From a virus, in the IMG/VR virus record IMGVR_UViG_3300025697_000014, positions 20,952 through 84,951 of that record: a stretch of 64,000 nucleotides of DNA; one strand, given 5' to 3'. Shown one piece after another: positions 1 to 26,537 of the stretch. The position numbers and the translations under genes were made by a program. Under the pieces are notes generated by a model that was not told the origin of the DNA, ran no database searches, and saw only the letters and a program-made list of their open reading frames with translations. How positions within the stretch are numbered: position 1 is the stretch's first letter; each line of letters begins with the position of its first letter.

Positions 1-3000
1 GACCAACCCCATGCTTCTTGAGCTGCTTGTCCACTTGCCAGTACGTTTAGCTGACGTTGTGATTGAGCAGCAAGAATATCGCCACCTCCACCGCCAACAC
101 CACCAGAATCAACCGGCCCAGCCATTCCGGCCATTCTGAAGTCACGGAATGCAGATTGTCCATAGGCTGGTATACCCTCTTTGAAGGCAGGACCTACTGC
201 TGTGCGCCATGCAGCCTTAACCATCGCACCTTGTGGGCTGAACGGTGAGAAGAGCCGTTTGATACCGGTTGCTGCGCCAAGCCACCACTGATCACCATCG
301 GCAGCTGCTCCGTCTCCACCACCTCCGCCTCCCCCTCCTCCCATCATGCCCATCGACATCTGGAAGTCTTTGCTTCCAACAAAGCCGCTCAACCCAGCTA
401 CGCCACCTATACCAAATGCTTCCTTTGATAGACGAGTGATGTCACCCATGGCGGTCTTGTCAACCATTGTGGCGATCATCTCTTGCTCGGCTTTGGTTGT
501 ATCGCTCGTGGCACTATTGAGTGCTCTACGGCTTCCGATGAGATTCTGTGTCACCTCTGCAAGCTCTGACTCTACATCAGCCATATTACGTGGCACAGCG
601 CCCGTGGACACACCACTAGCTTTACCACGCTCTCTGTAGGTACGTGCTACTCCCTGTGCTTCCTGGATCGCCCTGTTGCTGGTGTCACCTATGCCAACCG
701 CAGCACCTGCCTCGTCTAGCCTAGCACTGGCATACGAGAAGTCTGTACCGCGTGTAGCCTGGGCTAGATTGCCGAACGCCTCTCTGAATTGAGTGGTGTC
801 CATTCCAGAGGCTTTCATATCTTTCATCAGCTGATCAGCAGCATCTCTATAGCCTCGCTCTAGACCACGAGGGCCGCTAACATCACTGGCAACTCTCTTG
901 ACAGCAGTAAGATAGCTTCCTAGACTACTAGCAGCTTGCATCTCGGCCTTGGTGCTAGGTGTACCACCAGACAGAGCTGACTGATACGCACTCTTCATTC
1001 TATCTAGGTTCTCTTGATCTCCACCAAGAATGCCTACAGATTCAAGAGCTGACTGTGATACTTGCCCTTTGACCATTCGGGTATAGCTAGTTGTCTGACC
1101 TGCTACAGTTGTTGCCTGACTAAATGGAACAGACTCACCACCCGCAAACTGTTTCATATCGCCAAGAATTGCTTGTGCTCTTCGGTTCAGTACAGCTTGT
1201 CCAGTTGCTGATGGGTTCTGCGCAGACGGATCTGCAGCAGCAGAAGCAGTTGATCCTGTACCACCACCACCACCACTGCCAGATGCCCCCTGATCTTGTA
1301 TGTACTTGAGGTACCTGTTCTGGCCCTGGTCACCTAGAGTCATTCCCATAGACTCTGAGTAGGCGTTGACATTGCGTGCGGCTTCCATATCGTTAGCTTG
1401 TACTGCTCTAGTATGAGCAGCACGTAGAGGACGCTGTCTCCAATCGCTTTCGGCACTAGTAACATTTTCGTGTGATGCTTGAACCATCCTACCAAACGCA
1501 GCCTTCTCAGAGCCTGGATCGTTAGGGTCGTATGGATAATCAGCTAGCACTGTCCTACGTACGTCTTCAAAGCGGTCACCCGATACTGCCTGCTGTAGTT
1601 GTGGTCCTATCATAGTAGCCTTCTCCTCTTGGCTCATGGCAGACACTAACCTATCCACCACACTCTCTCGTTTACTCCTTTGCGCAAAGTTCGTCGCTTG
1701 AAGCAGTCCCGGGTATTCAGTGGATTCGTCCGTGGGTAATACGCCCATCGAGCGCAGTACCTCTGTATCTGTTTCTGCGCGTAAGGATGACAGCATGCCA
1801 CCCTCAATCATTGTACCTGTTACCTTAGCAAATTCACCGGCACCAATAGCTTGTTTGCCCCTACCCCTGCTTAGTAGACTCCTGTATGTGCGTGCGGCAC
1901 TTCCCTTCTCGACCATGCCCGTACCCCATTCATCGAGGTTCTCTGCCCACTCAGGATCTTCCCCGGCGGCTTTAGCATAACCAGAAGCGACGACAGCTGT
2001 TAGCCATGGAGCAGTACTGATTACTTCACGCTGTGTCTTGCCTGCGCCAATAGCTCTAACGAGTTCTGATGTCTTTGCACCAGACTCATATAGACCGGCA
2101 ACCTCTTCAAAGTTCTTGTCGCCGGTGCCAATGAACATACCAGCAAAGACACCCCCACTCATCGAGATCTCTTCACTCTGACCAAGCTCTCTCATCAAGC
2201 CTACTTCAGACGAGAGTAGATCCCTGACAAAGCCTGGTCCTTCTCCACGAGCAAAGCCACGAGTCTTGACGTTATAGCTGCTAAGATGTCTTGCTAACTC
2301 GTCAGCTGCTTTAGGCAAAGTACGAGCGTCTACAGATAGCCCATATAGAGGACCAGCTACCTGAGTAATCATATCCTCTGATATACGCATGGCACGAGCT
2401 TGCTGCGATGTACCAGCTGCCTGAGCCTCGATACCCATTGGAATAGCACGTCTGAACGCTTGGAACAAGGGACCAATACGTCCCATACGTTCCTCAATAG
2501 CAAAGGACTCTTCTCCGAACTTAGCTAGGGATGTGGACTGTAGCATACCCGCTGCGTATTTGTATGCTTCTTCCGCACTCCTTGGAGCATTAGCGATCTT
2601 TCTCTTTGTCTTAGCAAGCTCACCAGAACGCGCAGCCATACCCGCTACCGCTCTGTTAAGCTCTGCTTGCGTCCTTGGCATTTGGGAAGCAAGGCCCGCA
2701 TCAATATCCACAGGATCATCGTCCTTATCGCCCTCGTGTGCTTCAGCGAAACGAGAGGATACACTAGCTGGCACCATACTCGACTCTGCTAATGTAACTG
2801 GTCTACCAAGTGCGCTACCAAGTTGCTTGAGTGTCTGAGGACGAAGTCTTGTCTGTGAGTGTAGAGGGCTTGCCGATGGATACCTGAGAGCAAAGACATC
2901 CGGGATCATCTCGGTCTCACCCATCAACATAGCACGAGCAGCTTCGGCAGGAGTCTTGAATTCCTCACGTAGCCTGTCGCCACCAAAGTCTTCTTTACCC

Positions 3001-5177
3001 CAGATCTCGCTAACCAAACCGGTGAGACGGCGTTCTGGAATCCACATCTGCCCTGGTGCTAGACCTGGTAGGGCCTGTATCTTACCACCAAAGCCAGGTG
3101 CTCTACCACCCATAGCAGCTTGACGTATTCCAGCACTAGATGTTTGCTTTGCAAGCTCTGTTTCGTATGATCCAACAGCTTCCATAGCCTCCGCAAGAGA
3201 CTGTGGGTCTTGTAGAAGCTCGTTCTGCGCAATCTTACCGAACATCTCTGGAATCATTCTTGAGAGGCCAGAAACCCTCTGTTCTACATCGTCGCGTCCA
3301 AACCTCCGCATTACATCACCAGGGTTGGGTACAATCAATGGCCCACTTCTGCCGTACCTGTCTGGTAGACTGAGTCTGATACCAGAGGTGCCAGTGTACT
3401 CATCGAGAATAGCCATCGTCTGAGCTTCTACACCGTAGGCATTAGCATCTTCTTTGAGGCCGAGCTGGTTAGCTTCTGTTGCTCTATCGGCAGCTTCTGC
3501 CTGGATAGCAGACCAGTCACCGAGTATTTCGTTCCCTGAGACAGTCTTATAGTACGGGGCTTGCCCGTGCATAGCTGCTGACGCACCTAGTATTGATGCT
3601 GCTGTTGCCCTTGAGTCTATGCTAGCGTGTCTTATTGCGGAAACGCGGTCCTCGTCATGCATGCTAATGTCAGACATAACTTCTGGTGATACATAGCGAG
3701 AGTCAAACTGAAAGATTCCTCTTGGTTGCTCTCCGAGGTTCTCGTATATTCCAAAGCCAGTGAACTTGACCTGCGCCCGTCGCATTCCCTCTTCTGTTAT
3801 CTCTGAGCCAGGTACAATGCTTGCAAGACCCGCATCCCTCAAGGCTTGGATATGAGGATCGGGGTTGTTCGTAGGACCAAGGTATGCCTGTTGGGTAAAG
3901 GAGTATTGTGCAATACGGCCCTGTTCGCTCAGACCTTTCCACAAGCCTCTGACCTCTTTCTGGCCAAGCTCCTTTGGAGCGTAGCCAAGAACGTCAGTGA
4001 ATTGCTTGGGAGTCCATGTAGAGGTCACAGCAGCCATAGCTAGAGCTGCTTCGTTGACCTGTGTAATGTGAGCGGGTTGGATAGACCTTCCACCAAAGGT
4101 AACGTCCCAATCCTGCATTGTGGGATCTGCGACAGCTACTGTCTTCGAGCCAAGCCCCTTCATAGAGAAGGGATCTTTAGACATGCCCTCATATTCAATG
4201 ACGAGGTTATTTCTATCAAAGCCGTAGTTCTGGATTCTAACTTGGTCCTGATTCTTGATACGGGTGGAGATTCCAGGCGCAATATTGAGCATACCGCTGG
4301 CGTCTAGATCAATGACATCACCGACGTTAAACTCAGGAGTGAACCCCTCGCGCTGCATCTCTGAAGGTACTGGAATGTTAGCGTACTTATTGGTTAAGAT
4401 ACCACCGGTTTGCATAAGGTCGATTTGTGACTGGCCCTCTGGTAACACAGAGCCGCCGATCATCATAAGCGTAGGAACGTTCTGGGTAGTCCTTATGTCT
4501 AGAGAGGCTTGCTCTAAAGGAAGATTCGCGAAGTGTCCGAATGTTTGCTCAGCGATGGCCTTCTTCTGTCTAGTTGCAGCCTTACCTAGATCTGAGCCAA
4601 AGAATATCTCGTCTCCCCTTACATCAATACCAGGAATCCTACCAAGCCGTGACGTTGGCATGATAAGAGAACCCATACGAGTTTGGGTTGATGGATCGTA
4701 TTGTTCACCGTAGTTAAACTGACTACCCTCTAGGTGGCTGATGTCAGGGGGTAGCTGTCGATACATAGCACGCATCTGGCTTGTGCCGTGTGTCCAAGCC
4801 CAAGGATCAACAGAGCCTCGTTGTACCATCTCACCAGGTGCTGTATGCTGACCCTGGACCCTTACCTGAAACGGGGTACCGAATTGTTTCTGCGCAGCAG
4901 CTTGGACTTCTCCAAGAGTAGCTTGCCCGATGGTCATTGGAGAACTACCACCACCGATCTCAGTGCTGCCAAAACGAGAAACGACCTCGCCGCCCACAGT
5001 TGTGTAGTGAGCGGTAGGGCCGTATAGATCTTCTAGATATCCACGCGCCATACCGATGTCAACGCCGTATCTGCGTGTAGTAGCAGCAGCAAAGTTTCTA
5101 GCTTCTTCGGTTTGCCACGCTTCGTCAGGTGTTAGATCTTGTAGAGGAATAGAGTTACGCGAACGACCAACAGCCAT
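1..5177 (-). CDS. Tape measure protein with N-terminal two-barrel (DPBB) RNA polymerase-like domain; 3'-truncated by window edge (>1725 aa)
   Basis: ATG at 5177 overlaps the upstream stop (TAATG). The frame is open wherever I translated it (MAVGRSRNSIPLQDL...) and the ORF track lists no stop-terminated ORF in it. It lies directly after tail tube and chaperones. Beta'-like motifs GIRQAAMGGRAPG...GQMWIP, RYP and GDKDDD; Ala/Gly-rich distal part. Confidence 0.8.
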   Translation of the reverse strand, partial: MAVGRSRNSIPLQDLTPDEAWQTEEARNFAAATTRRYGVDIGMARGYLEDLYGPTAHYTTVGGEVVSRFGSTEIGGGSSPMTIGQATLGEVQAAAQKQFGTPFQVRVQGQHTAPGEMVQRGSVDPWAWTHGTSQMRAMYRQLPPDISHLEGSQFNYGEQYDPSTQTRMGSLIMPTSRLGRIPGIDVRGDEIFFGSDLGKAATRQKKAIAEQTFGHFANLPLEQASLDIRTTQNVPTLMMIGGSVLPEGQSQIDLMQTGGILTNKYANIPVPSEMQREGFTPEFNVGDVIDLDASGMLNIAPGISTRIKNQDQVRIQNYGFDRNNLVIEYEGMSKDPFSMKGLGSKTVAVADPTMQDWDVTFGGRSIQPAHITQVNEAALAMAAVTSTWTPKQFTDVLGYAPKELGQKEVRGLWKGLSEQGRIAQYSFTQQAYLGPTNNPDPHIQALRDAGLASIVPGSEITEEGMRRAQVKFTGFGIYENLGEQPRGIFQFDSRYVSPEVMSDISMHDEDRVSAIRHASIDSRATAASILGASAAMHGQAPYYKTVSGNEILGDWSAIQAEAADRATEANQLGLKEDANAYGVEAQTMAILDEYTGTSGIRLSLPDRYGRSGPLIVPNPGDVMRRFGRDDVEQRVSGLSRMIPEMFGKIAQNELLQDPQSLAEAMEAVGSYETELAKQTSSAGIRQAAMGGRAPGFGGKIQALPGLAPGQMWIPERRLTGLVSEIWGKEDFGGDRLREEFKTPAEAARAMLMGETEMIPDVFALRYPSASPLHSQTRLRPQTLKQLGSALGRPVTLAESSMVPASVSSRFAEAHEGDKDDDPVDIDAGLASQMPRTQAELNRAVAGMAARSGELAKTKRKIANAPRSAEEAYKYAAGMLQSTSLAKFGEESFAIEERMGRIGPLFQAFRRAIPMGIEAQAAGTSQQARAMRISEDMITQVAGPLYGLSVDARTLPKAADELARHLSSYNVKTRGFARGEGPGFVRDLLSSEVGLMRELGQSEEISMSGGVFAGMFIGTGDKNFEEVAGLYESGAKTSELVRAIGAGKTQREVISTAPWLTAVVASGYAKAAGEDPEWAENLDEWGTGMVEKGSAARTYRSLLSRGRGKQAIGAGEFAKVTGTMIEGGMLSSLRAETDTEVLRSMGVLPTDESTEYPGLLQATNFAQRSKRESVVDRLVSAMSQEEKATMIGPQLQQAVSGDRFEDVRRTVLADYPYDPNDPGSEKAAFGRMVQASHENVTSAESDWRQRPLRAAHTRAVQANDMEAARNVNAYSESMGMTLGDQGQNRYLKYIQDQGASGSGGGGGTGSTASAAADPSAQNPSATGQAVLNRRAQAILGDMKQFAGGESVPFSQATTVAGQTTSYTRMVKGQVSQSALESVGILGGDQENLDRMKSAYQSALSGGTPSTKAEMQAASSLGSYLTAVKRVASDVSGPRGLERGYRDAADQLMKDMKASGMDTTQFREAFGNLAQATRGTDFSYASARLDEAGAAVGIGDTSNRAIQEAQGVARTYRERGKASGVSTGAVPRNMADVESELAEVTQNLIGSRRALNSATSDTTKAEQEMIATMVDKTAMGDITRLSKEAFGIGGVAGLSGFVGSKDFQMSMGMMGGGGGGGGGDGAAADGDQWWLGAATGIKRLFSPFSPQGAMVKAAWRTAVGPAFKEGIPAYGQSAFRDFRMAGMAGPVDSGGVGGGGGDILAAQSQRQLNVLASGQAAQEAWGW

Positions 5178-5467
5178 TATTTTCCTCCGCTAGAAAGCAA
5201 GTCCCTAATATCGGTAATGGCATTAAGAAAGAGCTTCTTCTCATCAATCTCCCGCTGACTACGCTCCATTTTCTCTCCGATAGCAGCAGCGGAAATGTCT
5301 CTCATAAACGAACGGGGCTGGTCTGTCCAGCCCCCTCCATTTGGTAGTCCATAAGAATCAACGTATCGTTTCCAGTAGAGGGAGTCGGGAACAGTCTCAA
5401 ATTGCTGTAGTCCACCCTTGCCATCTGGTAGTGGATCACCGTGCTCCCAACAACAGAAGGCGAACAC
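5177..5467 (-). CDS. Tail assembly chaperone, downstream (gpT-like) part; probably reached by frameshift
   Basis: Between chaperone and TMP. Frame is open upstream to about 5536, across the chaperone stop; GTG start has only a 3-nt SD spacing. Confidence 0.6.
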   Translation of the reverse strand: MFAFCCWEHGDPLPDGKGGLQQFETVPDSLYWKRYVDSYGLPNGGGWTDQPRSFMRDISAAAIGEKMERSQREIDEKKLFLNAITDIRDLLSSGGK

Positions 5468-5510
5468 ATTCTCCTCAATCTCTTTGAGCCTCCGTCTGTG
5501 TTCCTTATGG

Positions 5511-5981
5511 TCAAAACGTGGTTGCCCAGTGTGGGGCTACCTCTAGCGTCCTGATGTACCAGAAATCGATAACTGGTGTAGGAACAAGCGCGATCATCTT
5601 AGCGAAATCACCACGACTCATGTTACCGTTCTGGTCGAAGGCAATCTCGTCAAACAGGACCTCTTTGTGTTCCTTGTCCCATAGCAAACGTCCGTCGTCA
5701 TCTCTGCGAGGGACGGAAATTTCCAAGTCAGTTCCACCAAAGCATAGGTAGATTTCGTGCTGGATTGTACTCAAGTACCTGTCACCGTCCTCGCGAACAG
5801 TCGCCATGTGCTCCCTACGAGCACGATCTGTGCCGAATGTTGGAGGAACAATACGCACCCAGACATTGCTTAGCGCCGGGTATGGATTCTCCCAGTCCTT
5901 GATAGGCTCTCCAAGAGAGTCCTTTGGATGCTGGATGAGCTTCACTTCCTGCGGATAAAAGTCGCTGATCTTGACAGACAT
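5511..5981 (-). CDS. Tail assembly chaperone (gpG-like)
   Basis: 156 aa, GAGGA RBS, canonical position after tail tube gene. Confidence 0.6.
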   Translation of the reverse strand: MSVKISDFYPQEVKLIQHPKDSLGEPIKDWENPYPALSNVWVRIVPPTFGTDRARREHMATVREDGDRYLSTIQHEIYLCFGGTDLEISVPRRDDDGRLLWDKEHKEVLFDEIAFDQNGNMSRGDFAKMIALVPTPVIDFWYIRTLEVAPHWATTF

Positions 5982-6055: not shown

Positions 6056-7195
6056 TTATGCTGTATATGAAACGTATTCGGGAAGATCTGTGTACGCTGT
6101 CCCGTTGATGATCTTGATCGTTGCGTACGCTTCTGCTGTAGCCTGAACCGTAGCAACACCGCTGACACGCATGGTCAGATACCCTCCAGCAACCTGTGTG
6201 ATACCACCGGGGCACTGAAGATCGCAACTAGCCAGATTGAAGACAAGCTCCTGGTACTGGGTAGTAGACGTTCCAACTAGCGTGGGGCTTCTAAGCGTCA
6301 GTTCCAATGGCGCACTTAGCACAGTCGGAGACCATGCGTACGCATTGTGACCATGTCGATAGATAGCCCGAGCCAGCTTGGGGTCTTTCCACTTGTAGAC
6401 CATATCAAACGCGATTGTCTGAGACAGTAGCACCATATCATCCATCTGATAATCGCCAACCACAAGCTCGTTCACGATGTTGCTTCCCGAGAAGGTGTTA
6501 GTGACCATCATACGCATGGAAATCGTGGGTACTGTGAAGTCCAGACCTACTCCATCTCCCATATCTATTCCAGCTACAGCTTGGAGGATAGGTTTAGCAG
6601 ATGCAGGTGCAAGGACGATGGATGAAGTGTCCTCAAAGGCTGAGTTCATATCATCCGCCCAGCTGGAAGCGTCAGACGACCAGGATGAGCCGATACTGAG
6701 TAGAGCTAGCTCTAGGCCAGCTGGAGCCGCAGCTCCGATAGAGAAGACGCCAGATGCAATCTTCGCATCCGTCATAATCTCACCCTCGTTCTGAATGCCA
6801 CCGGCAGAGTTGGGGATGTATCTGCGAGCGGTTAGCCAGGGGTGTGTATAGATGTCTGTGCGCGGTGTGAAGGTCGTGGTATAGACACCCGCTGAAGTGC
6901 TGGTGGCGGCTGTTTGGACGCCACCCATCAGCATATAAATGAGATAGCCAATGTCTCCCTCAATGCGCGGATACATTGAAACTCGACCCGCGCCGACATT
7001 GTAGATCTTGTAGGACCCGCCTGGATGATAGCCACCCCCTACCTCGATAGGGAAGTTGCCCATCGCCTGTTGGTTACCAACGTTTGCAGACAACACCCTT
7101 ATCCGCTTAAAATCGGAGTCGGTGTCAATTGATGTTCCCTTTGCAGGCTGAACGGCGAATGCGAGTCCAATTCCTGTTGAAACTGGTTCAGTCAT
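6056..7195 (-). CDS. Major tail (tube) protein
   Basis: 379 aa, Thr/Gly/Ala-rich, N-terminal GLAFAVQPAKGT pattern, position before chaperones and TMP. Confidence 0.7.
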   Translation of the reverse strand: MTEPVSTGIGLAFAVQPAKGTSIDTDSDFKRIRVLSANVGNQQAMGNFPIEVGGGYHPGGSYKIYNVGAGRVSMYPRIEGDIGYLIYMLMGGVQTAATSTSAGVYTTTFTPRTDIYTHPWLTARRYIPNSAGGIQNEGEIMTDAKIASGVFSIGAAAPAGLELALLSIGSSWSSDASSWADDMNSAFEDTSSIVLAPASAKPILQAVAGIDMGDGVGLDFTVPTISMRMMVTNTFSGSNIVNELVVGDYQMDDMVLLSQTIAFDMVYKWKDPKLARAIYRHGHNAYAWSPTVLSAPLELTLRSPTLVGTSTTQYQELVFNLASCDLQCPGGITQVAGGYLTMRVSGVATVQATAEAYATIKIINGTAYTDLPEYVSYTA

Positions 7196-7197
7196 AG

Positions 7198-8259
7198 TTA
7201 GCTCCTAAGTACTTTCTTGTATGCATTTACCCAGTGAGTATAACCCGTAGCCATGTTATGATTATTGATGATATCAAGAAGTCCTCTGCGCTGAAGTTGT
7301 TTCCGTAAACGGTCGTCCTCAACTAGCTTCTTGATTGCGTCGTAATAGCCATCCACCGAATGTTTACAGATGAGGCCATTGCGCATGTGTCTTACTACTG
7401 GATTATACACTACACTGTCTGTTGCCACAACTGCAGCGCCACCAGTTGTGTGTCCTATCACTCGCTTTGCCGCCCACGCCTCCATTGCTTTGACCGCACT
7501 CTTACAATGATTGAAGGGATCGTCGGGATCGATAGCGCAGACCACGATATCCGCTTCTGCTAGCGTAGTTGGATATTGATTGTAGGGCTTTGATCCAATC
7601 AGGTCTACATGGAAGCCCTGTTCCACATAGTCCGGGTGATAACCAGCAACCAGCATACGAACATTCTGGTTCTCCAGTGTGAGCCGCTTGATTGCTTCTG
7701 CGGCAAATCGCCAATCTCCCTGGTGTGTCTTGGTACCAACAAGCAATACATTGATCGTATCGTTGTATTCGCGCTTGTGTCTCATAGACGCGCCAGCAAA
7801 GAATCGTACCTCTACATAGTTATTGATAACGTGTATGGGCTTGTCGCAGAACTCTAGCATACGATTCTTGAGAAACTCTGTTGTAACTGTGAGAGCGTCT
7901 ACGTATGGTAGGTATGGAATACTGCTTGCACCCTCTCCGTTACTTGTGTCACGATATACGTTGGAGAGATCGTCGTCTGTCTCGTATACGATCTTTGCTC
8001 CACGAGAGTGTAGCATTTCACAGTATTTCCTTGCCATCAAGAAGTCGTCCGTTATTGGACGAGATAGGACTATGATGTCTGATGTGAGCGCGACCTCAAG
8101 AGATTCGGGTGACATATTCATGGCATTGGTCTTTGCGTCGAACCAACTAGCCCAGTGTTTAGTTTTCTGATCGATGTAGTGTAGCGGTAGTGTTATTCGA
8201 TAGATGTGGATAGCCATGGGTACTTTCATAGCGCCACTTATGATACCTGTTACTCGCAT
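7198..8259 (-). CDS. Glycosyltransferase, GT-B fold (GT4-like)
   Basis: YETDDDL, FNHCKSAVKAME and NGLI motifs. True start probably ATG 8259 (AAGGAGGTG RBS, TGATG overlap). Confidence 0.8.
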   Translation of the reverse strand: MRVTGIISGAMKVPMAIHIYRITLPLHYIDQKTKHWASWFDAKTNAMNMSPESLEVALTSDIIVLSRPITDDFLMARKYCEMLHSRGAKIVYETDDDLSNVYRDTSNGEGASSIPYLPYVDALTVTTEFLKNRMLEFCDKPIHVINNYVEVRFFAGASMRHKREYNDTINVLLVGTKTHQGDWRFAAEAIKRLTLENQNVRMLVAGYHPDYVEQGFHVDLIGSKPYNQYPTTLAEADIVVCAIDPDDPFNHCKSAVKAMEAWAAKRVIGHTTGGAAVVATDSVVYNPVVRHMRNGLICKHSVDGYYDAIKKLVEDDRLRKQLQRRGLLDIINNHNMATGYTHWVNAYKKVLRS

Positions 8260-8954
8260 CACACCTCCTTGAATGTTGCGACCTCCAGATACAACTTCGT
8301 GTCCCATATGTAGTCATCTGTTGGACCACCGCGTCTGCGGCAGTGTGTGATAACAGGATAACATCGATACGGGCGTTCACCAAAGGAATCTACTATAGCT
8401 ACACCATCACTATCTAGCATCTTCCAGGCCCAGTCTTGCGGCATAGTAGTATATGAGGTTAGCATAGACTCTAAGAACGAGAGAGCAGCGCTGCCCAATC
8501 TTTCTACCTCGTCTCCTAGTTGATTAGACTCTAGGAAGAATGTAGTCATCTTGACCACAATCCGACGATGCATCATGTGTGAGCTACCAACCTCAAACAG
8601 GAATCCTGGGTCGTCTGCTTTCTGCGCGGAATCTAGCGACGTGTATATGCTGTGTCGCCAGTCTTCTACGTTCTCAAAGTCGTTACCGGCAACCTCGATG
8701 TATACCGAGGGTACTGCACTGTTCTTAGCTAGATTGAGCGTGTCCTCCTGGACTCGCCCCAAAGCAACAAGAGTAGGCCCAAAGATTCTCTCGGTGCCGT
8801 TCTTATCAGTGTATGTCAGTAGCTCTTCTAACTCGGTGGGACAGAAGGCAACCTGTGTCTGACTACCGTCGGTGGCATACTTATCCCCAAGCCATAAGGC
8901 CCGGATATGCGCCTTGATACTAGTAGTCAGTGCGTGAACTATTGAGCTTGTCAT
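8259..8954 (-). CDS. Putative tail terminator / head-tail completion protein
   Basis: Position only; 231 aa. Confidence 0.4.
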   Translation of the reverse strand: MTSSIVHALTTSIKAHIRALWLGDKYATDGSQTQVAFCPTELEELLTYTDKNGTERIFGPTLVALGRVQEDTLNLAKNSAVPSVYIEVAGNDFENVEDWRHSIYTSLDSAQKADDPGFLFEVGSSHMMHRRIVVKMTTFFLESNQLGDEVERLGSAALSFLESMLTSYTTMPQDWAWKMLDSDGVAIVDSFGERPYRCYPVITHCRRRGGPTDDYIWDTKLYLEVATFKEV

Positions 8955-18344: not shown

Positions 18345-19426
18345 ACAAGCTCCTCTAGACTTTCTGTAAATGTATCTATAACGGTATCAAACAACTCCGG
18401 GTTTCTGTAAAGATCGTAGAACATAGGCATGCTGATGAGTCTCTGCCATACTTCTTCAGCAACGGGTGTTTCACCATCAAACATACTATAGTGGTTCAGT
18501 GGTTTGTAGTGTACACCAGCGCTGACTCCTTTGTCTAGCATCTTGGTAACCAGCTCGTTCCTTATATGTGCTGGTACCCTGATTGGATACAAGTGCCATG
18601 TGTGTTGTCTGTGGTTGGGTGGGAGTAGAAGGTCTAGATATCCACGCAGTGCTAAGTCGTATTCCTTTGCTATACAACGACGGGCTGCGTTTAATCCACC
18701 TAGACGATGGAATTGAGCTAGGCCAATTGCTGCTTGTATATCGTTCCAGTGATACTTGAACCCGACTTCTTCTATATCATAGTCCCACCCATATCGATCC
18801 TGCGAGCGTTCCCAGGTGGACTTGTTGATCCCGCACCACCTTAACGCACGCATACGTTCTGCATAGTGGCGGTTATTGGTGAGAACTGCTCCACCGTCAC
18901 CTGTAGCTAGATTCTTGACTGGGTGGAACGAGAGACAGATCATGTCTCCATATCCAGGTGTTCCGCCGCAGGAATGTGCTGCATCCTGGATAACTGGTAT
19001 ACCTAGATCCCTACGGCCAGCTGGGTAGCCAGCGTAGTCAACTGCTATGATAGCCTTAGTGCGCGGTGTAATCTTTGCTTCTGCGCAGTCCCAGTCTATA
19101 CAGAGAGTCTTGGGATCGATGTCTGCAAGTACTGGCGTAGCCCCCACATAGATAGGAGCCAGACCCGTGCTCACAAATGTTAGCGGAGGAACGATCACCT
19201 CGTCTCCTGGTCCGACGTCTAGTACTAACATAGATAGGTGTAAAGCGGCTGTACCGCTATTCGTAGTAACGCAATAGCGATAACCGTATAACTCGGCCAT
19301 CTCTTTCTCGAATTGCTCAACAACCTTCCCAGTACCCCACCATCCAGATTTCAAGACGCTAACTACAGCGTTTATCTCGGCCTGGGTACAACTGGGTTGT
19401 AACAAAGGAATTACGTTGCTAGGCAT
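18341..19426 (-). CDS. DegT/DnrJ/EryC1/StrS family PLP-dependent sugar aminotransferase
   Basis: NSGTAALHL, GDEVIVPPLTFVST, QDAAHS, SFHPVKNLATGDGG. Confidence 0.93.
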   Translation of the reverse strand: MPSNVIPLLQPSCTQAEINAVVSVLKSGWWGTGKVVEQFEKEMAELYGYRYCVTTNSGTAALHLSMLVLDVGPGDEVIVPPLTFVSTGLAPIYVGATPVLADIDPKTLCIDWDCAEAKITPRTKAIIAVDYAGYPAGRRDLGIPVIQDAAHSCGGTPGYGDMICLSFHPVKNLATGDGGAVLTNNRHYAERMRALRWCGINKSTWERSQDRYGWDYDIEEVGFKYHWNDIQAAIGLAQFHRLGGLNAARRCIAKEYDLALRGYLDLLLPPNHRQHTWHLYPIRVPAHIRNELVTKMLDKGVSAGVHYKPLNHYSMFDGETPVAEEVWQRLISMPMFYDLYRNPELFDTVIDTFTESLEELV

Positions 19427-20006
19427 CCAAACTCCTCTTGTGTATAACGATCATGCTCTTGGAGAGATGCATGAACAATATACGGCTTTTGTCAAGACGT
19501 GGATCGCCCCACCGGCCATGTCCATAGTCATTTATCTCGTCTATTAGCGGGCGAAACATATCAACGGTTGTCGGTCCTCCATTGTTGTATTCTGTGCGAT
19601 ATCCAGCGCGTACATCTTCGATAATCCATAGTCCACCAGGTTTAAGATGCGGAAAGCCAAGATCGAAGGCTGTCTTAACATCTACCGATTGGTGGCTACC
19701 ATCATCGACAACAACATCGAACTCTCCAAGCCGCGACCATAGATTGCTATCTGTAGCATCGCCATGATGGAACTTAAAGCGTGGATCGCTTACATTGTTG
19801 ATTTTGATATCTATCCCGTCAACGAGTGAATCTGGCAAGTACTCAAGCCACATCTTAATAGACATACCCTCGTGAACACCAATCTCTAGCAGGTGTAACG
19901 GACGAGGTAGCCAGGACAAATACCACTCGTATCTATACAAGTAGTTGTTTGCCCTTGACGTCTTGTCCGTTCCACATCTCAGACCGATGTCATTCAGGCT
20001 TTCCAT
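19419..20006 (-). CDS. Class I SAM-dependent (sugar O-)methyltransferase
   Basis: GTDK, LLEIGV, FDVVVDDGSH, LKPGGLWIIED; start likely ATG 20006. Confidence 0.85.
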   Translation of the reverse strand: MESLNDIGLRCGTDKTSRANNYLYRYEWYLSWLPRPLHLLEIGVHEGMSIKMWLEYLPDSLVDGIDIKINNVSDPRFKFHHGDATDSNLWSRLGEFDVVVDDGSHQSVDVKTAFDLGFPHLKPGGLWIIEDVRAGYRTEYNNGGPTTVDMFRPLIDEINDYGHGRWGDPRLDKSRILFMHLSKSMIVIHKRSLDA

Positions 20007-20659
20007 TAGACCTCCGGCCACTCGTCAGGGAACCCAGCCTTGTGACGGGCTTCGTATGTCTCCCTATCGATCTTGTTGTGTTCCATGTCTAGAATCTTGA
20101 GACGCTGAGCATCGCGATCCTGATGATGTGTGAATGTTGCTTCTGCGCAGAATACAAGCGCATGTGCTTCATTAGCTCTGAATGTCCACTCGTTATCGCC
20201 ATATTCGACGTAGTACCAGGGGAGACCCATTCTACCATTCATAACGGTATCAACGTATTCCCGAGTACACATCCATAGGGTGGCTAGTGTTCCATAGTGC
20301 CACGGGTCGTGGAAAGCTACAAAGCCCTTGTTGGGCGTGTCTAGGCAAGCCCGTAGCCAGCCATCGTCGAATTCCATATCGTCCGACATAAGAGCAATCC
20401 ACTCGCCAGTTGAGACCTGGTAACCAGCTTCCCACTTCTCTTGTGGGTGTCCGTTACGATAGTCTTCTGGCATAAGCACTACTCGTACATCGAGTAAGTC
20501 CATCATAGCTTCTCTGCTTATGATGTCTGGTGCGTCCAGAATGACGATAATCTCTGTATTAATACCGGCGGTTGTTGCGCGTATGTTAGCGAGTGATCGC
20601 TTGAGACCACCTACTCTGTCTCTACTCGGTATGAGAATGCTGACTAGCGGATCTGCCAT
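20006..20659 (-). CDS. GT2 family glycosyltransferase
   Basis: VSILIPSRDR, MSDD, YGDNE. Confidence 0.85.
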   Translation of the reverse strand: MADPLVSILIPSRDRVGGLKRSLANIRATTAGINTEIIVILDAPDIISREAMMDLLDVRVVLMPEDYRNGHPQEKWEAGYQVSTGEWIALMSDDMEFDDGWLRACLDTPNKGFVAFHDPWHYGTLATLWMCTREYVDTVMNGRMGLPWYYVEYGDNEWTFRANEAHALVFCAEATFTHHQDRDAQRLKILDMEHNKIDRETYEARHKAGFPDEWPEV

Positions 20660-21183
20660 AGCTCTCTCCCTTCTTCCCCATTCCAGTCCTGGAAGAAAAG
20701 GTTGTCCCTTTTCTCGAAGATAGTGATATTGGATTCGTCCTTGTTTACCTCTATTGTCCTGATAGATGGCGAGAACTGCTTCAGGAATGCGACGATGTTA
20801 TCTACGTCCTGTGTGCGCCTAGTATCGTGGAAAGCTAGCTTGCCTCCAATTTTCAGTAGAGGCCATGCGTTAAATGCGAACTCGCGTCGTTTGTCATCGA
20901 CTCCATCATCAAAGATGAGATCGTAGCCACTACCCTTTCTCTCCATGTATTGTTGGTATGTAACAATCTCTATCTCACGTATGTCTAGATCTGAGAGACG
21001 CTTATTGGTGGTCTCAATCCAGTAAGGATCGGTTTCAACCGATTTCATAGGACATGTAGAATAAGCAGCCATCACCTGTGTAGACGCTCCACATCCAAAC
21101 TCTAGGATGCTGGTTGCTTCACAGGCAAGCTTACGTAATACCACAGCGTCTGCTTTACTGATATCGCCAATGTACGGGATCAT
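20644..21183 (-). CDS. Class I SAM-dependent methyltransferase
   Basis: ILEFGCGAST, YDLIFDDG, LKIGG..AFHD; start ATG 21183 with GGAGG. Confidence 0.85.
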   Translation of the reverse strand: MIPYIGDISKADAVVLRKLACEATSILEFGCGASTQVMAAYSTCPMKSVETDPYWIETTNKRLSDLDIREIEIVTYQQYMERKGSGYDLIFDDGVDDKRREFAFNAWPLLKIGGKLAFHDTRRTQDVDNIVAFLKQFSPSIRTIEVNKDESNITIFEKRDNLFFQDWNGEEGRELWQIR

Positions 21184-21845
21184 TTCTGTTGAACCTCCAT
21201 GTGCTCTGCTATCTTGGTAGTCCAGTAATTGGACTGACCAACACCAATTGATTTCATATAGTATAGCTCGTCGTCTGATAGGTCGCTTACCTTGTCGTAG
21301 TACCAAGGGACATGTATAGCATCGTAGGGTGGCGCAGAGCGTACAGCGGGGAAATCATGTAGTCGACTACGGCATAGACAGAAAGTTGTGTCAATGTCAC
21401 TGCCATAGAACTGATCGTCTACCTTACGTGACCAAGCAATGGCTTCCCACTTCTTAGCCTGGATACCGATAACTGTCGGTGGTAAGTCGCTGGTCCTTAG
21501 AGAGAAACCAGACTTACACGCAAACTCATGTCTATCTAGACCTAGCTGAAGTACATGCGGCCAATCCTTCGGGATATGGTCGATCTTCAGATCGGGGTCT
21601 GTGACAACGAAACCACCATTGAGACCAAAGTCGTCCAGGATACTCGTTAGCCAGACTACAGCACACCCGTAGTTCATATCCATACGCAGAACCTTGTGAG
21701 GTGTAGTCTCGTAGTACTCCAGCAACGGGGGATATGTACTCTTGTTATCTATGATGATAGGGGTTACCCCAGGACACTCAGCAAGATAGTCTGCCATTCT
21801 GCGCGGAAGGTGAAGACGGTTGTAGTTGATGATAAAGGCATACAT
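21180..21845 (-). CDS. GT2-like glycosyltransferase
   Basis: IINYNR, IIIDNKSTYPPL, VVTDPD, IDTTF. Confidence 0.8.
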   Translation of the reverse strand: MYAFIINYNRLHLPRRMADYLAECPGVTPIIIDNKSTYPPLLEYYETTPHKVLRMDMNYGCAVVWLTSILDDFGLNGGFVVTDPDLKIDHIPKDWPHVLQLGLDRHEFACKSGFSLRTSDLPPTVIGIQAKKWEAIAWSRKVDDQFYGSDIDTTFCLCRSRLHDFPAVRSAPPYDAIHVPWYYDKVSDLSDDELYYMKSIGVGQSNYWTTKIAEHMEVQQK

Positions 21846-21847
21846 GT

Positions 21848-22339
21848 CTATTTCCCGTTCCTGCATTCAAAGTGGAGCCACCATGGAACATCTTTATCAC
21901 CAGGTGATTTATCGAGATTGATTGACGTAAATCCATAGTTGGTAAGTAGGTCTACCAACGTGATTTTCGTGAAAAGGTTATAGTGCTGATGTGGGTAACC
22001 AGCCTGGTCTCCATACAAGTTTCGCATGAAAGTTTCACGATCAATCGTGCCAGCAACATACTTCTTGATATTAGAGTCAAGGCTAGGAGTAGTGCCGTGT
22101 AGAAGGCCGTGCGGTTTGAGAATTCGCTTCCACTCAGGGAAAACGAGGTGATACTTCCACACAGGAACATGCTCAATTACATCACCAACCCAAATCTCGT
22201 CTACATAGTCGTCCTCAAGAGGAATATCAACGAAGTCACACACTATTTCGATGTGAGGCCCTTCGTCAAAGTCCAAATGAATCCAGTCGTCCAATGGCTT
22301 CTTGGTATTCAGGCCGCAGCCCATGTCCAGCTTAATCAT
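21848..22339 (-). CDS. Class I SAM-dependent methyltransferase
   Basis: KLDMGCG, DVIEH, RILKPHG. Confidence 0.85.
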   Translation of the reverse strand: MIKLDMGCGLNTKKPLDDWIHLDFDEGPHIEIVCDFVDIPLEDDYVDEIWVGDVIEHVPVWKYHLVFPEWKRILKPHGLLHGTTPSLDSNIKKYVAGTIDRETFMRNLYGDQAGYPHQHYNLFTKITLVDLLTNYGFTSINLDKSPGDKDVPWWLHFECRNGK

Positions 22340-22368
22340 TGTACCACCTTTCCATAGTGTATCTCATA

Positions 22369-23190
22369 TCAAGCCTCAGTTGGCTCGACAATATCTGTTT
22401 CTACGTGTTTGTTGAAGCCTCCATCAAAGTATGGTGGAATCTGACCGTTCTGTAGAGCGAGCTTGTATCTGTTGTAGTTCGGCATACCCTGAGAAGCCTG
22501 CCTACTCTTCCATGCTGTATATTCAGCTAGTGGATTTGGATCAATGTGATCGATATCAACGCCATGTAAGAAGCACGATGAATATCCCAGCTTGTGTGCT
22601 CTAAGGGCAGCGATAGCATCGTCAAAGCCATAGACCGTGTCAGGTTGTAGCAAGTAGCCGAATTCAGGTAACATACTTGGATTGAAGCAGTAACAGGTAC
22701 CCATAACGTGGTTCGTTTCCTCGATTACTATCCACGGCTCTCCTGGCTTCTGATCAACCATCAAAAGGCGTGTGCGATAGAATGGTTCCGAAGAAGTAGG
22801 CCGTTCCGGTAGATCCTTGCGCTTCATGCCGAGAATACCAACAGAAGGCATGCGCTCAAGAACGAACTCTACACGCGATGTCCACCCGGGTGTGTTTATG
22901 ACACAATCGTTGTCCATCTTACAGAGAACTTCTCCCTCGTCAGCCAGTCTCCAAGCCTGATTCGTACCACCGGCAATTCCAAGGTTCTCTCCGTTAAAGA
23001 TCACGGAGAAGTTTTCATAGCGTTCCATGACGGTCTGATAAACATAGTGTGTCAGTTTACAAGACCCATTGTCCGATACCACAACGCGGTCTGTGCCTCT
23101 GATGCTCTCCATCAGCACCTCTAGCGTCTTTGCAGTTAGTTCACTCCTGCCGTTCTCTTCTGTGTCCCATACGGGCATTGCGATCAACAT
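22369..23190 (-). CDS. GT2 family glycosyltransferase
   Basis: VVSDNGS, ENLGIAGGTN, KMDND, YGFDD. Confidence 0.85.
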   Translation of the reverse strand: MLIAMPVWDTEENGRSELTAKTLEVLMESIRGTDRVVVSDNGSCKLTHYVYQTVMERYENFSVIFNGENLGIAGGTNQAWRLADEGEVLCKMDNDCVINTPGWTSRVEFVLERMPSVGILGMKRKDLPERPTSSEPFYRTRLLMVDQKPGEPWIVIEETNHVMGTCYCFNPSMLPEFGYLLQPDTVYGFDDAIAALRAHKLGYSSCFLHGVDIDHIDPNPLAEYTAWKSRQASQGMPNYNRYKLALQNGQIPPYFDGGFNKHVETDIVEPTEA

Positions 23191-23492
23191 CTTAGTACTC
23201 CCTCCCTTATTGCTAAATCAAAGTGACTCAAAACATTGTCAAGGAACAAATCGAAGTCTTCTGTAAGTACACCTCCTATACCTCTACACAACATGGCGTT
23301 TCTAAGTCGTATTATAGCGTGCTCTTTTGCATCTACTCGTTTAATACGGCCTTCTCTAAGTGCGTATAGAAGGCTGTCCAAAGTAGCTTTCTGGTCTTTC
23401 GGTAAGCAATATCTTTGCGTGAATTCAAACATATGTGTCATGTACTCCTTTATTATATGCGGTTGTTCGATATAGTCAATTTGTTCGCCCAT
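23184..23492 (-). CDS. Hypothetical protein, first gene of the minus-strand operon
   Basis: C-terminal part of the listed 236-aa ORF from MGEQIDY; the upstream part is antisense to a plus-strand gene. Confidence 0.45.
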   Translation of the reverse strand: MGEQIDYIEQPHIIKEYMTHMFEFTQRYCLPKDQKATLDSLLYALREGRIKRVDAKEHAIIRLRNAMLCRGIGGVLTEDFDLFLDNVLSHFDLAIREGVLRC

Positions 23493-23523
23493 AGCTGCTT
23501 CGCAATAAACATCAAATGGAGGT

Positions 23524-24033
23524 TTGATGAACGTATATACATGCGATTGGATGCAAACAACGGAAGTGCGTAGGTTAAAGAGGACATTCTGGCAGAGGGT
23601 GAAGCAGGGTTTGTTCCGCCCCTTCCAGATCGAGATTGTGGTGACACCTATCGAAGAAGTATACGCAATAGGAGACACCGTATTCATGCACCCATCAATG
23701 TACGAGGGATGGATAACCGACAAGAACGACGAGAACATCATACTCACTAGAGAAGCCGGTAGGGGTAGTGGAACCACAACAGCTATGGTACACAGACTCA
23801 TAGAGTCATTGGTTGTGGATAACCATATCAAGACCGCGACATTGGAGGCCCATACCAACGCATATGGTTGCCAGATACTAGAGAACCTAATCAAGTACTC
23901 GCGGCAAAGAGGTTATGAAGTGGGCCGTATTTTCAGAGACAAGGTTCAGATCGAGAAGAAGTGGGTAGTGGTAAATGGCGGGATGTTTGTGCCCAACCTG
24001 TATACAGACCATCACAAAGAGGGAATAGGATGA
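23524..24033 (+). CDS. Hypothetical protein with degenerate P-loop (GRGSGTTT)
   Basis: GGAGG RBS, coupled to next gene. Confidence 0.5.
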   Translation: MMNVYTCDWMQTTEVRRLKRTFWQRVKQGLFRPFQIEIVVTPIEEVYAIGDTVFMHPSMYEGWITDKNDENIILTREAGRGSGTTTAMVHRLIESLVVDNHIKTATLEAHTNAYGCQILENLIKYSRQRGYEVGRIFRDKVQIEKKWVVVNGGMFVPNLYTDHHKEGIG

Positions 24034-24443
24034 ACAAATACGGTGTAGATCTATCGGTAATCAGCAACCAAATGCCTACCCCATATGAAATGATCTTAGA
24101 GCATGAGTTCCTACAACTGACCTTCCTTGGCAATCACTACTCGTCATTTCCATGGCCACCAGTAAGGCAGATTCATGACCTCGTCTCTGATAAGGTAGTA
24201 AGAGTACACTTCGTAGACTACGGGCATGGATACGTAGCCATAGCATCCATCCGTGCATATAAGGACTGGAAAGCACCGGAGGGATGGAGAGCACTTGAAA
24301 CCAAGTATGGTTTTACCACCTTCGTAGCGTTCTATCATGTAGGATGCAAACACAAAGGCATGACAGATGTCAGAGGTCGTGAATTTGAACATACGTATAG
24401 CTGCGCAGAATGTGGATTCTCAGAAACACTCGATAGCTCGTAA
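24030..24443 (+). CDS. Hypothetical Zn-ribbon protein
   Basis: C-terminal CKH...CAECG..DSS. Confidence 0.5.
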   Translation: MNKYGVDLSVISNQMPTPYEMILEHEFLQLTFLGNHYSSFPWPPVRQIHDLVSDKVVRVHFVDYGHGYVAIASIRAYKDWKAPEGWRALETKYGFTTFVAFYHVGCKHKGMTDVRGREFEHTYSCAECGFSETLDSS

Positions 24444-24454
24444 GGGGAATATAT

Positions 24455-24946
24455 ATGATCTGGAATGATGTAATGTTGGCTCAGTGGGCCTCTGTTGGAG
24501 GTATTTCGCCTTTTGTACCAGAGCTGGTGAACCCAGCGTCTATAGACCTTCGCTGGAGCGGTAGATACCGTTTTCGCGAAGGAGGTAAGTGGTCAGACGT
24601 ACAACTCACCAGTGTGTTGTGGATGAAGCCAGGAGAGCTGTATTTGCTCGATACTCTTGAGTATATTACGATGCCACCAGATGCTGCCGGTGATATCAAG
24701 CTGAAATCTCGCGTTGGACGTAGAGGAATTGAACATTTGCACGCTGGCTTCGTAGAACCGACTTTTGCCGGTACACTAACGCTAGAAATGACAAATGTCC
24801 TCAAATCCCTAGTATCCCTTCAAAACGGAGATCGTCTTGTGCAATTAGTACTAATGTCGATGGCACAAGTCCCGCAGAAGCCCTACTCCGAAGTTGGACA
24901 CTTTATGGGACAAACCGAGCCTACAACAGCGGAAGAACGGGTTTAA
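24455..24946 (+). CDS. dcd: dCTP deaminase
   Basis: NPASIDLR, TLEYI, KSRVGRRG, AGFVEPTFAGTLTLEM. Confidence 0.9.
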   Translation: MIWNDVMLAQWASVGGISPFVPELVNPASIDLRWSGRYRFREGGKWSDVQLTSVLWMKPGELYLLDTLEYITMPPDAAGDIKLKSRVGRRGIEHLHAGFVEPTFAGTLTLEMTNVLKSLVSLQNGDRLVQLVLMSMAQVPQKPYSEVGHFMGQTEPTTAEERV

Positions 24947-25392
24947 TAGTGCATAAGCAAAGAAATTCAAGCCGTACTATGAAATAGCTATAGAGTAAAG
25001 GTATTCCCTTGAACGTAGAGGGGTCTCGACGATCACCTATTTCTGCGCACAATCCAAGGAGTAACACGATGAGCAAGATACACAGAGGCGACAAGGTTCA
25101 TATCAAGGGTAACGAATGGAAGACCTATACCATCAAATGCATTTGGGCAGAGAAGAACAAGCGAACTGAGGTTAAGCTAGTAGAACTTGATAGATGGTTC
25201 TCGGCTCACGATTTGGTGAAAGCGAGATGAATAAATACACTATCTATCTATCGAGCGGGGAAACGATGGTGATTGAGGCCCATAGATGGAAGTATACTGA
25301 TATGGATCTGTCGTTTTATGACGAGAATGGAAAGCGGTTAGCAGTAGTACAACCGGCTAACTACTGTGGCTTCACAATAGAGGAGATGGAAG

Positions 25393-25821
25393 ATGAAGAT
25401 CTACATAGCGGGGCCAATTAGCGGCCTGTCATTCGACGCTGTTCAAGAGTTTTTCACAACCAAGAAGAACATACTAGAGATGGCGGGTCATACCGTTCTT
25501 AGCCCAATGCTGGGTAAAGATGACCTGCGAAACGAGACAGTACTCAGGGGCTATGGATACAAGGGCGCAACAACTACTAACCACGCTATTGTTGAAAGAG
25601 ATAGGTGGATGGTCGAGCAAAGCGATATCGTCTTTGCAGATCTTAGTCATGCTAAAAGCGTGAGCATTGGCACCGTGTTTGAGCTTGCGTGGGCATCTCT
25701 GCTACGAAAGCATACTGTGGTTGTAATCGACAACTTTCACTACCATGCATTCGTCATGGAGGCTGCAGACATCATCTTCGAGACATGTGATGAAGCCCTG
25801 GAATACCTGTCTAAGCTATAA
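25393..25821 (+). CDS. Nucleoside 2-deoxyribosyltransferase-like protein
   Basis: KIYIAGPISG, RD...V..SD, SIGTVFELAWA. Confidence 0.8.
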   Translation: MKIYIAGPISGLSFDAVQEFFTTKKNILEMAGHTVLSPMLGKDDLRNETVLRGYGYKGATTTNHAIVERDRWMVEQSDIVFADLSHAKSVSIGTVFELAWASLLRKHTVVVIDNFHYHAFVMEAADIIFETCDEALEYLSKL

Positions 25822-26537
25822 GGAGGGGTAATGTCTAGGTTCTACGGATGGTTAACTGGTAATCGCGGTACTACGACGAGGTGTGGAACTAGGAATAGCG
25901 GGATTCTCACAAGACTCAGGAGCCTAACTGGGATAGAGGTGTCTACAAAGCTTGGTGAGAAGTTTGACGGCACAGATGTCATATGCTTCTGTATCACTTA
26001 TGGTGAAGAAGTACTCTTTAGAGCTACATGGGACAGAAAGCGTGGTCTTGTAATCTCTATACCGGAAAAGGTGGCCCGTAAACCAATTAGAGTGACTTCT
26101 GAGTGGAATATAGGTGATATCGTAACCATACGCGACCATTCTTTTGTAGTAGAAGGAGAATCTAGCAATATCGTCGCAAGACTTAGGAAAATTGATAAAG
26201 GGGAAAGATATGGAAAACGAACAAATGGAACAGTTGTCTGCGATACAACACAATGAGATTTGGTCGCATTGGATGGATTATCTATTCAAGCAATGTCAGG
26301 AATATCCAGACGGCAGTATGATGATTCCGGCTAGCTTAGTAGAGCACTGGGATAGACAAGTACATACCAAGTATGCCGATCTCACAGGGCAAGAGAAAGA
26401 GAGTGATCGTGAGCAAGTGCGGAAGTTTGCGCATCTTGTGGGAGATCAAAAGTGGATTGATGCTCTAGAAGCAGCGGGCGTTGATAATTGGGATGGATAT
26501 ACCTACGCAATAGATGTATATCAAGGGAGAGGGTGAT

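Follow-up and report, generated by a model that had tools for sequence, protein, structure and literature searches.

Does the giant late gene of an uncultured phage open with an RNA polymerase (RNAP), and would such a polymerase travel in the virion? The question is raised by the 84,951-bp IMG/VR record IMGVR_UViG_3300025697_000014, of which positions 20952-84951 constitute the 64,000-nt stretch analyzed here (hereafter, the window). At the left edge of the window lies a minus-strand open reading frame (ORF) with its ATG at 5177, which remains open at that edge (3..5177, 1725 amino acids [aa] in the window). The initial annotation had noticed this unlisted ORF at the position of a tape-measure gene and had proposed that its product starts with a single-chain two-barrel RNAP. 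We consider it fairly likely, as the best explanation of the whole locus, that the gene encodes a virion-borne polymerase of this type fused to a protein of the late module, probably a tape measure.

A predicted two-barrel polymerase at the head of a giant protein

In the whole record, the ORF extends over genome positions 18476..26128 (minus strand) and encodes 2550 aa in a single frame with no internal stop. An in-frame stop parting the polymerase region from the remainder was looked for across the record; since the frame is continuous over 2550 codons, there is none. The ORF seen from 5177 is therefore the beginning of one uninterrupted gene, and the four peptides quoted in the initial annotation are all found at the residues it had given. 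The features of the polymerase region are listed below (window coordinates where given, with residue numbers of the protein).

1..5177, on to genome 18476 (window -2475), minus strand: giant gene, 2550 aa, of which aa 1-1725 lie inside the window
1743..5177, minus strand: predicted RNA polymerase module, aa 1 to ~1145, a beta-like half followed by a beta'-like half (12 relatives, AlphaFold2 and fold searches)
3693..5105, minus strand: predicted beta/Rpb2-like half, aa ~25-495 (fold matches)
4419..4442, minus strand: P246-x-G248-Q249-x-x-x-D253, immediately ahead of the flap-like insert, candidate equivalent of the "GQN...ED" barrel entry of beta
4170..4400, minus strand: predicted flap-like sandwich-barrel insert, aa 260-336 (fold comparison)
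aa 339-347, minus strand: MKGLGSKTV, including K340 and K345 (translated sequence)
4143..4160, minus strand: K340-x-x-G343-x-K345, candidate two-lysine motif of the beta-type barrel, directly after the flap-like insert
1758..3569, minus strand: predicted beta'/Rpb1-like half, aa 537-1140 (fold matches)
aa 675-714, minus strand: LAKQTSS...MWIP (translated sequence)
2667..3098, minus strand: predicted double-psi beta-barrel of beta' type, aa 694-837, preceded by the switch-2-like IRQ...GGKIQ
aa 760-767, minus strand: DVFALRYP, including R765 (translated sequence)
2877..2885, minus strand: R765-Y-P767, counterpart of N-R425-A-P of beta' (R and P invariant, 11/11)
aa 813-823, minus strand: AHEGDKDDDPV, including D817, D819 and D821 (translated sequence)
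2715..2732, minus strand: G816-D817-K-D819-D-D821, predicted metal-binding DxDxD loop (G816 and D817, 12/12; D819 and D821, 11/11)
2418..2528, minus strand: 37-residue helix, aa 884-920, candidate bridge helix (DSSP of the model; E895 and R910 invariant)

Twelve relatives were recovered when 1.84 billion representative proteins were searched exhaustively with HMMER; one is 72% identical and the rest are 24-35% identical, in most cases across the whole of aa 1-1150. Without exception they match at the N-terminus, in proteins of 1893-3920 aa and in a few fragments; word-indexed searches contributed only P0003, P0005 and P0015. The last of these is distant: it shares Trp-rich repeats near the C-terminus, and a sub-threshold N-terminal alignment sets GDFDKD under the Asp loop. 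One stored homologue in the protein Atlas (0.76) provides a lead only. No match was found by tblastn among 50,697 phage records, whether the query was the N-terminal 1150 aa or P0015. A scan of metagenome_contigs for related loci recovered four loci (L004-L007); the same scans of viral_contigs and genome_contigs returned no match and thus give no clue to the host.

Across aa 1-1150, 63 of the 1150 alignment columns were invariant, and these include G248, Q249, K345, G697, R765, P767, G816, D817, D819 and D821. R765 and the three aspartates, on which the initial annotation had relied, are thus conserved in all of the 11-12 relatives that could be compared. Of the lysines that it had advanced as a weaker match, one is invariant and the other nearly so, with K345 kept in 10/10 relatives and K340 and G343 each in 9/10, while P246 and D253 are each kept in 10/11. 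The same annotation had called the DKDDD loop non-canonical. The D/x/D/x/D triad stood, but the label did not: its spacers K818 and D820 are not conserved, position 818 being K, Y, W, L, F, M or E and position 820 being D, E, K, I, V, A or Y (loop variants GDKDDD, GDYDDD, GDWDDD, GDWDED, GDLDKD, GDFDID, GDMDID, GDWDVD, GDYDAD and GDEDYD). Because both positions vary freely, the catalytic pattern is an ordinary DxDxD and, judging from the aligned relatives, DKDDD is a peculiarity of this phage rather than a new kind of site. The bare D.D.D pattern is common in the genome (six occurrences in ORFs of at least 150 aa), so the motif by itself proves nothing.

The surroundings of the loop are more informative. 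The beta' landmarks of E. coli, RFRQN337-GRSV351-HQCGLP364-R425, are paralleled here by IRQ684-GGKI697-QMWIP709-R765 with closely similar spacing, and the claim that the beta' motifs recur in order and roughly in spacing is borne out for these first four landmarks; the gap from the Arg to the first Asp is 52 residues here vs. 35 in E. coli. The R-x-P motif and the switch-2-like basic stretch before the barrel (I/R-R-Q ... G697-G-x-I) are therefore spaced as in beta'. In the other half, the GDK1065...GNK1073 pair of E. coli beta directly follows the flap, and the candidate Lys pair of the phage protein, at the equivalent place, is three residues closer together. The GQN of E. coli beta stands at 797, ahead of its flap, and the order of the motifs makes P246...D253 its candidate counterpart.

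We then examined the predicted structure, using AlphaFold2 models built from an alignment of 13 sequences. The model of aa 1-1150 reached a mean predicted local distance difference test (pLDDT) of 78.6 and a predicted template modeling score (pTM) of 0.73, with pLDDT values of 84-94 over aa 690-810 that fall to 73 at the Asp loop. Modeled separately, aa 1-560 (pLDDT 72.6; pTM 0.67) showed the same secondary-structure elements. When the first model was compared with the PDB using Foldseek, the top 50 matches were all RNAP beta' or beta/Rpb2 chains, at modest E-values (best, 3e-4). The second model gave 128 matches at E <= 1e-3, the top 50 of which were all second-largest subunits, with vaccinia Rpo132 as the best match (E 2e-6). 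The matches of aa ~25-495 were limited to the second-largest RNAP subunit (beta/Rpb2), flap-like insert included. Those of aa 537-1140 were limited to beta'/Rpb1 and other two-barrel polymerases (QDE-1, RDR2 and gp96 of Thermus phage P23-45), and the beta' alignment reached aa 1140. Isolated double-psi barrels (CDC48-N, VAT-N and designed barrels) superposed on aa 694-837 with a root-mean-square deviation of 2.3-2.6 over 82-88 residues.

Modeling followed by Foldseek, the check suggested with the original proposal, thus returned a beta-like and a beta'-like half, with the Asp triad carried by a predicted double-psi barrel. Of the expected pair of barrels, the beta' type was recovered as such, and the beta type is indicated through the beta/Rpb2 matches of aa ~25-495. 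The helix at aa 884-920 is a candidate bridge helix from its position after the barrel. Taken together, the models, the fold matches and the invariant residues suggest that the N-terminal ~1,145 residues very probably form a compact single-chain two-barrel (cellular-type) RNAP, as had been proposed. The predicted fold is not of the right-hand, T7-like kind: a search of the genome with the T7-like profile PF00940 gave no match (control genomes were silent too), and the genome revealed no conspicuous candidate for a T7-like polymerase or for a second DxDxD polymerase.

Several observations weigh against this reading. The models derive from 13 sequences only, and K345 is only presumed to face the Asp loop. 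The Asn-Ala that precedes the first Asp in NADFDGD is missing here. The 2550-aa protein matched no family in Pfam and none in PHROGs, and hhalign detected no similarity between the family profile and E. coli RpoB, E. coli RpoC or P23-45 gp96. In searches of PDB sequences, phmmer returned a chance match only for the 2550-aa protein (E 0.53), and the family profile gave only a marginal match to an XPF helix-hairpin-helix (E 0.03), in a segment of the relatives that is not clearly present here. One could then suppose that the region is a structural part of the virion, its polymerase-like fold being an artefact of modeling or an inactive relic and its motifs being due to chance or to structural needs. 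We regard this as very improbable. Two independent models match two different subunits, in the right order and at the top of unbiased lists, and the best viral look-alike has a DxDxD of its own. Moreover, it is precisely the catalytic residues that show no variation at 30% identity, a pattern not expected of an inactive relic.

Another alternative accepts the two-barrel fold and assigns it a different use: RNA-dependent synthesis of the QDE-1/RDR kind, the making of primers, or the pulling of DNA into the cell with no required transcripts being made. QDE-1 and RDR2, which do appear among the matches of the beta'-like half, are cellular RNA-dependent RNA polymerases (RdRPs) that act on RNA. However, they are not among the top 50 matches of the N-terminal half alone, which resembles DNA-dependent second-largest subunits, including the flap-like insert, and not RdRPs. 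Furthermore, the known phage cases, P23-45 gp96 and phi14:2 gp66, are DNA-dependent (PMC10770324). Directly after the polymerase module, some relatives also present a helix-hairpin-helix pair of DNA-binding type (HHH_5, XPF-like; aa 1243-1296 in P0004 and aa 1245-1298 in P0005), which fits DNA handling; its matches to PF14520 (E 1e-4 to 1e-3) fall short of the Pfam cut-off, and it is not evident in the protein of this phage. A use other than DNA-dependent transcription of early genes therefore seems improbable to us.

The carrier protein and its genomic neighborhood

What, then, is the predicted polymerase attached to? The remainder of the giant protein consists of a variable middle and a conserved C-terminal module:

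1203..1292, minus strand: low-complexity linker rich in Gly, Ser and Ala, aa ~1296-1325, where the variable middle begins (sequence)
1..890, minus strand: start of the conserved C-terminal module of ~1000 aa, aa ~1430-2546, mostly beyond the window

By BLASTP, the C-terminal module is 27-40% identical to the C-termini of P0004-P0011 and P0015, and every full-length relative has both the N-terminal module and the C-terminal ~1000 aa. The middle stretch differs in length by more than 1000 residues among relatives (1148 to 1486 here vs. about 1222 to 2342 in P0004). The C-terminal part contains poly-Gly tracts and Trp-rich W-x-x-E/Q-D repeats and ends in a charged, probably coiled segment, and a hydropathy scan revealed one strongly hydrophobic stretch with a glycine zipper (aa 1752-1786; genome 20771-20875). 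Shorter, stand-alone proteins related to the C-terminal part were also sought; only fragments were recovered, and polymerase-free tape measures of this family were not demonstrated.

The giant gene belongs to a late block on the minus strand, and the order of the genes is the same in the metagenome loci L004-L007. The neighboring features are the following:

upstream, minus strand: 540-aa ORF at the place of the terminase, without a family match
upstream, minus strand: portal (PF05133)
upstream, minus strand: coiled-coil ORF in the scaffold position
upstream, minus strand: 473-aa ORF in the capsid position, no family assigned
9565-10272, minus strand: HNH endonuclease, between the capsid and adaptor genes
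upstream, minus strand: SU10-type adaptor (PF24175, E 5e-8)
upstream, minus strand: 231-aa ORF
7198-8307, minus strand: GT1-family glycosyltransferase (phrog_7162; also at 6563-7636, plus strand, in L004)
6056..7195, minus strand: 379-aa ORF in the major tail protein position, place conserved in L004
5511..5981, minus strand: 156-aa ORF, candidate tail-assembly chaperone (G-like), homologous ORF at the same place in L004, L005 and L007
upstream, minus strand: 96-aa ORF
5177..5516, minus strand: +1-frame extension of ~111 aa, candidate programmed +1 frameshift with entry at TTT-TGA-C (5516-5510)
downstream: ORFs of 147, 1224, 1298 (fibre/CBM-like), 174 and 1146 aa (amidase)

The HNH gene is probably a mobile insertion, because it has no counterpart at this place in L004. 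The glycosyltransferase is kept within the neck/tail block of both this phage and a relative of ~30% identity, which suggests a glycosylated virion protein.

The two ORFs directly upstream of the giant gene bear on its identity. In long-tailed phages, two ORFs linked by a frameshift characteristically stand directly ahead of the tape-measure gene, a hallmark reportedly established by Xu et al. (2004). A candidate pair of this kind lies at 5177-5981 (minus strand) of the window, at 9103-9950 in L004 and at ~9100-10000 in L007, its first ORF encoding 156 or 174 aa. The 156-aa ORF ends with ...ACG TTT TGA C, the corresponding site of L004 and L007 is TTT CGA C, and the extension ends in a stop codon that shares bases with the start codon (ATG) of the giant gene. 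Conservation with L004 and L007 ends in the zero frame at the Phe and begins in the +1 frame at Phe-Asp, where it continues for ~110 residues; the +1 ORF of L004 contains no ATG, GTG or TTG early enough for a 90-aa ORF. This switch of conservation between frames in three loci points to a candidate +1 frameshift joining both ORFs into a G-T-like fusion of ~266 aa. A +1 shift of this kind, at a shifty stop or rare codon, would differ from the usual -1.

From the gene order, the upstream pair and the character of the sequence, we lean towards a tape measure as the identity of the giant protein. The initial annotation had taken this identity from the position of the gene; the position and the candidate frameshift pair speak for it, and a match to any tail or tape-measure family did not materialize. 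Families of tube, sheath, chaperone and tape-measure proteins were not detected in Pfam, PHROGs (relaxed thresholds included), NCBIfam or PDB sequences, and the 379-aa ORF in the major tail protein position had no match in these four collections.

These negative searches also leave room for a virion without a long tail. The polymerase could be real and its carrier an internal, ejected "cargo" protein of a short-tailed or other virion, delivered like gp66 of crAss-like phages or gp50 of N4, with a membrane-active C-terminal part comparable to ejection proteins of the T7 gp15/gp16 type. Indeed, the only family-level match among the neck and tail genes is the adaptor of podophage SU10, and the 156-aa ORF presents a weak PHROG match to the head-closure protein Hc1 (E 0.006 over 40 aa); both count against a long tail. 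The morphology could not be borrowed from kin either, since tblastn of TerL and the major capsid protein against the 50,697 phage records found no relatives. However, adaptor folds are common to podophages and siphophages, and the conserved, apparently frameshift-linked pair stands where long-tailed phages have it. In addition, the relatives differ in length mainly in their middle region, as rulers would, and one structural look-alike of the polymerase is annotated as a "minor tail protein" of a Siphoviridae contig. We therefore judge the cargo alternative unlikely, although less so than the two alternatives considered above.

A possible infection route and a candidate promoter element

If the polymerase is indeed fused to a tape measure, a course of infection can be proposed by analogy with known virion polymerases. 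The giant protein would be incorporated as the virion assembles, probably within a long tail, and would consist of a polymerase head joined to a body that serves as a ruler or acts on membranes. When the phage infects a cell, the protein would exit together with the DNA or in front of it, and its C-terminal glycine-zipper region would insert in the envelope. The polymerase head would then transcribe the first phage genes, so that the host enzyme would not be needed. In this analogy, the enzyme would be catalytically active on a DNA template, and its location in the virion, the role of its carrier as tape measure and the early timing of its action would be as in those systems.

The record carries a 127-bp "direct terminal repeat" (genome 1-127 and 84825-84951; the right copy is at 63874-64000 of the window), in which positions 73 and 84897, which lie 84,824 apart, have identical context. 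It looks like an assembly overlap rather than true ends, because 127 bp is typical of the k-mer overlap left by an assembler on a circular contig. The repeat is thus no guide to the genome ends or to the end that enters the cell first.

A phage-encoded polymerase might recognize its own promoter. The 12-mer TTCTGCGCACAA is present in 10 copies (including those at window positions 25041, 31959, 32558, 33929, 45688, 49315 and 51364, plus strand), nine of which are co-oriented with the local genes. Six copies precede a Shine-Dalgarno sequence by at most a dozen bases, three of these adjoin it directly, and one copy abuts a tRNA-like element (49327-49449) at which ARAGORN makes no call. The tRNA genes Arg-TCT (48001-48075) and Thr-TGT (49165-49238), both on the plus strand, are found near this element. 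The core TTCTGCGCA occurs 34 times in 85 kb, against an estimated expectation below 1. These distributions suggest that TTCTGCGCACAA may be a promoter of the phage polymerase, an operator or an RNA element. The core is found on both strands and sometimes inside genes, so it may instead be a protein-binding site. For comparison, 25 sigma-70-like promoters were found in the plus-strand early block vs. 28.3 expected, a lack of enrichment that is only weakly informative but counts in favor of the polymerase reading.

Comparison with known systems

In the literature that we searched, a virion RNAP fused to a tape measure is described only for P23-45 and its close Thermus relatives. P23-45 gp96 is a tape measure of 5002 aa, and its first 1200-1540 residues constitute an active virion RNAP (Chaban et al. 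2024; PMC10770324). Its structures are available (PDB 8h2m/8h2n), proteins of the gp96 type also exist in P74-26, G20c and TSP4, and its authors called the fusion of polymerase and tape measure a "previously unsuspected association" (PMC10770324).

The initial annotation had suggested that the architecture of P23-45 extends to another phage lineage, and our results support this extension with no sequence relation between the two. In both phages, a single-chain two-barrel polymerase of ~1,100-1,200 residues with a DxDxD motif, here a predicted one, heads a giant protein, and the gene follows the head genes and one or more small ORFs and precedes the tail-tip genes. The genomes are also of similar size (84.2 kb for P23-45 vs. 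84.9 kb here). This size and the gene order raised the possibility of kinship, which we rejected: in a tblastn comparison of the P23-45 genome with all ORFs of this phage, a dCTP deaminase was the only common sequence. Aligned to our family profile, aa 1-1533 of gp96 gave an hhalign probability of 0.2, that is, no detectable sequence relation. The giant protein is also half as long (2550 vs. 5002 aa), it carries a flap-like insert that sets it apart from gp96, and no second polymerase like P23-45 gp64 was recognized. Since there is no sequence similarity to P23-45, the sequence comparisons indicate that this is a separate family following the same principle.

We searched for further look-alikes among viral structures in BFVD. 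The best match was the second half of ORF65L of Microcystis phage MaMV-DC (1677 aa; E 1.4e-10 over 977 columns), followed by an N-terminal chunk of the "minor tail protein" of uncultured Siphoviridae sp. ctnpt50 (E 5.5e-8 over 1046 columns); proteins of Acinetobacter phage ME3 also stood out. phi14:2 gp66 was not among the structural matches listed, an absence that carries no evidential weight. NEGDADGD occurs at aa 1352 of ORF65L, and NLGDFDGD at aa 2537 of ORF82L (3560 aa) of the same phage; the MaMV-DC genome record (KF356199) lists both proteins as hypothetical:

225-5258 of KF356199, minus strand: ORF65L
17653-28335 of KF356199, minus strand: ORF82L

These predicted resemblances suggest that MaMV-DC may encode unrecognized two-barrel polymerases, and we found no study of ORF65L or of the ctnpt50 minor tail protein in the literature searched. 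MaMV-DC differs from the phage described here in that the polymerase-like part occupies the C-terminal half of ORF65L, the virus is contractile-tailed with a genome of 169 kb, and its protein shows no tblastn similarity to the giant protein. Look-alikes in cultured phages such as MaMV-DC and ME3 make the idea testable at the bench.

A broader interpretation, which we hold only tentatively, is that the protein represents an undescribed family of minimal beta-beta' fusion RNAPs of ~1,140 aa that was independently recruited as the head of a tape measure and is threaded through a long tail. If so, the fusion of polymerase and tape measure would be recurrent among uncultured phages and not an oddity of Thermus phages; a second unrelated family, from a lineage whose terminase and capsid proteins lack relatives in about 50,000 sequenced phages, would suggest either that the fusion has more than one origin or that it is very old. 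The polymerase would also be among the smallest cellular-type RNAP cores, of interest for structural and synthetic work: a compact single chain of beta and beta' with a flap-like insert would help to define the minimal two-barrel machine, and orthogonal use of the enzyme would be possible if it has a short promoter of its own.

Finally, the comparison with cellular and large-virus enzymes (bacterial beta/beta', Rpb2/Rpb1 and vaccinia Rpo132/Rpo147) reveals both differences and likenesses. A cellular RNAP has two chains of ~1,340 and ~1,400 aa, whereas the phage protein has one chain of ~1,140 aa fused to a predicted virion protein; it shares no sequence-profile similarity with them, and no alpha, omega or sigma partners are known here. 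The order and the predicted fold of the two halves are nevertheless the same, with a flap-like insert before the Lys motif and with a switch-2-like R-x-x...GG-x-I followed by R-x-P and DxDxD. In the structural models, the N-terminal half of the phage protein appears closer to cellular Rpb2/beta than to gp96.

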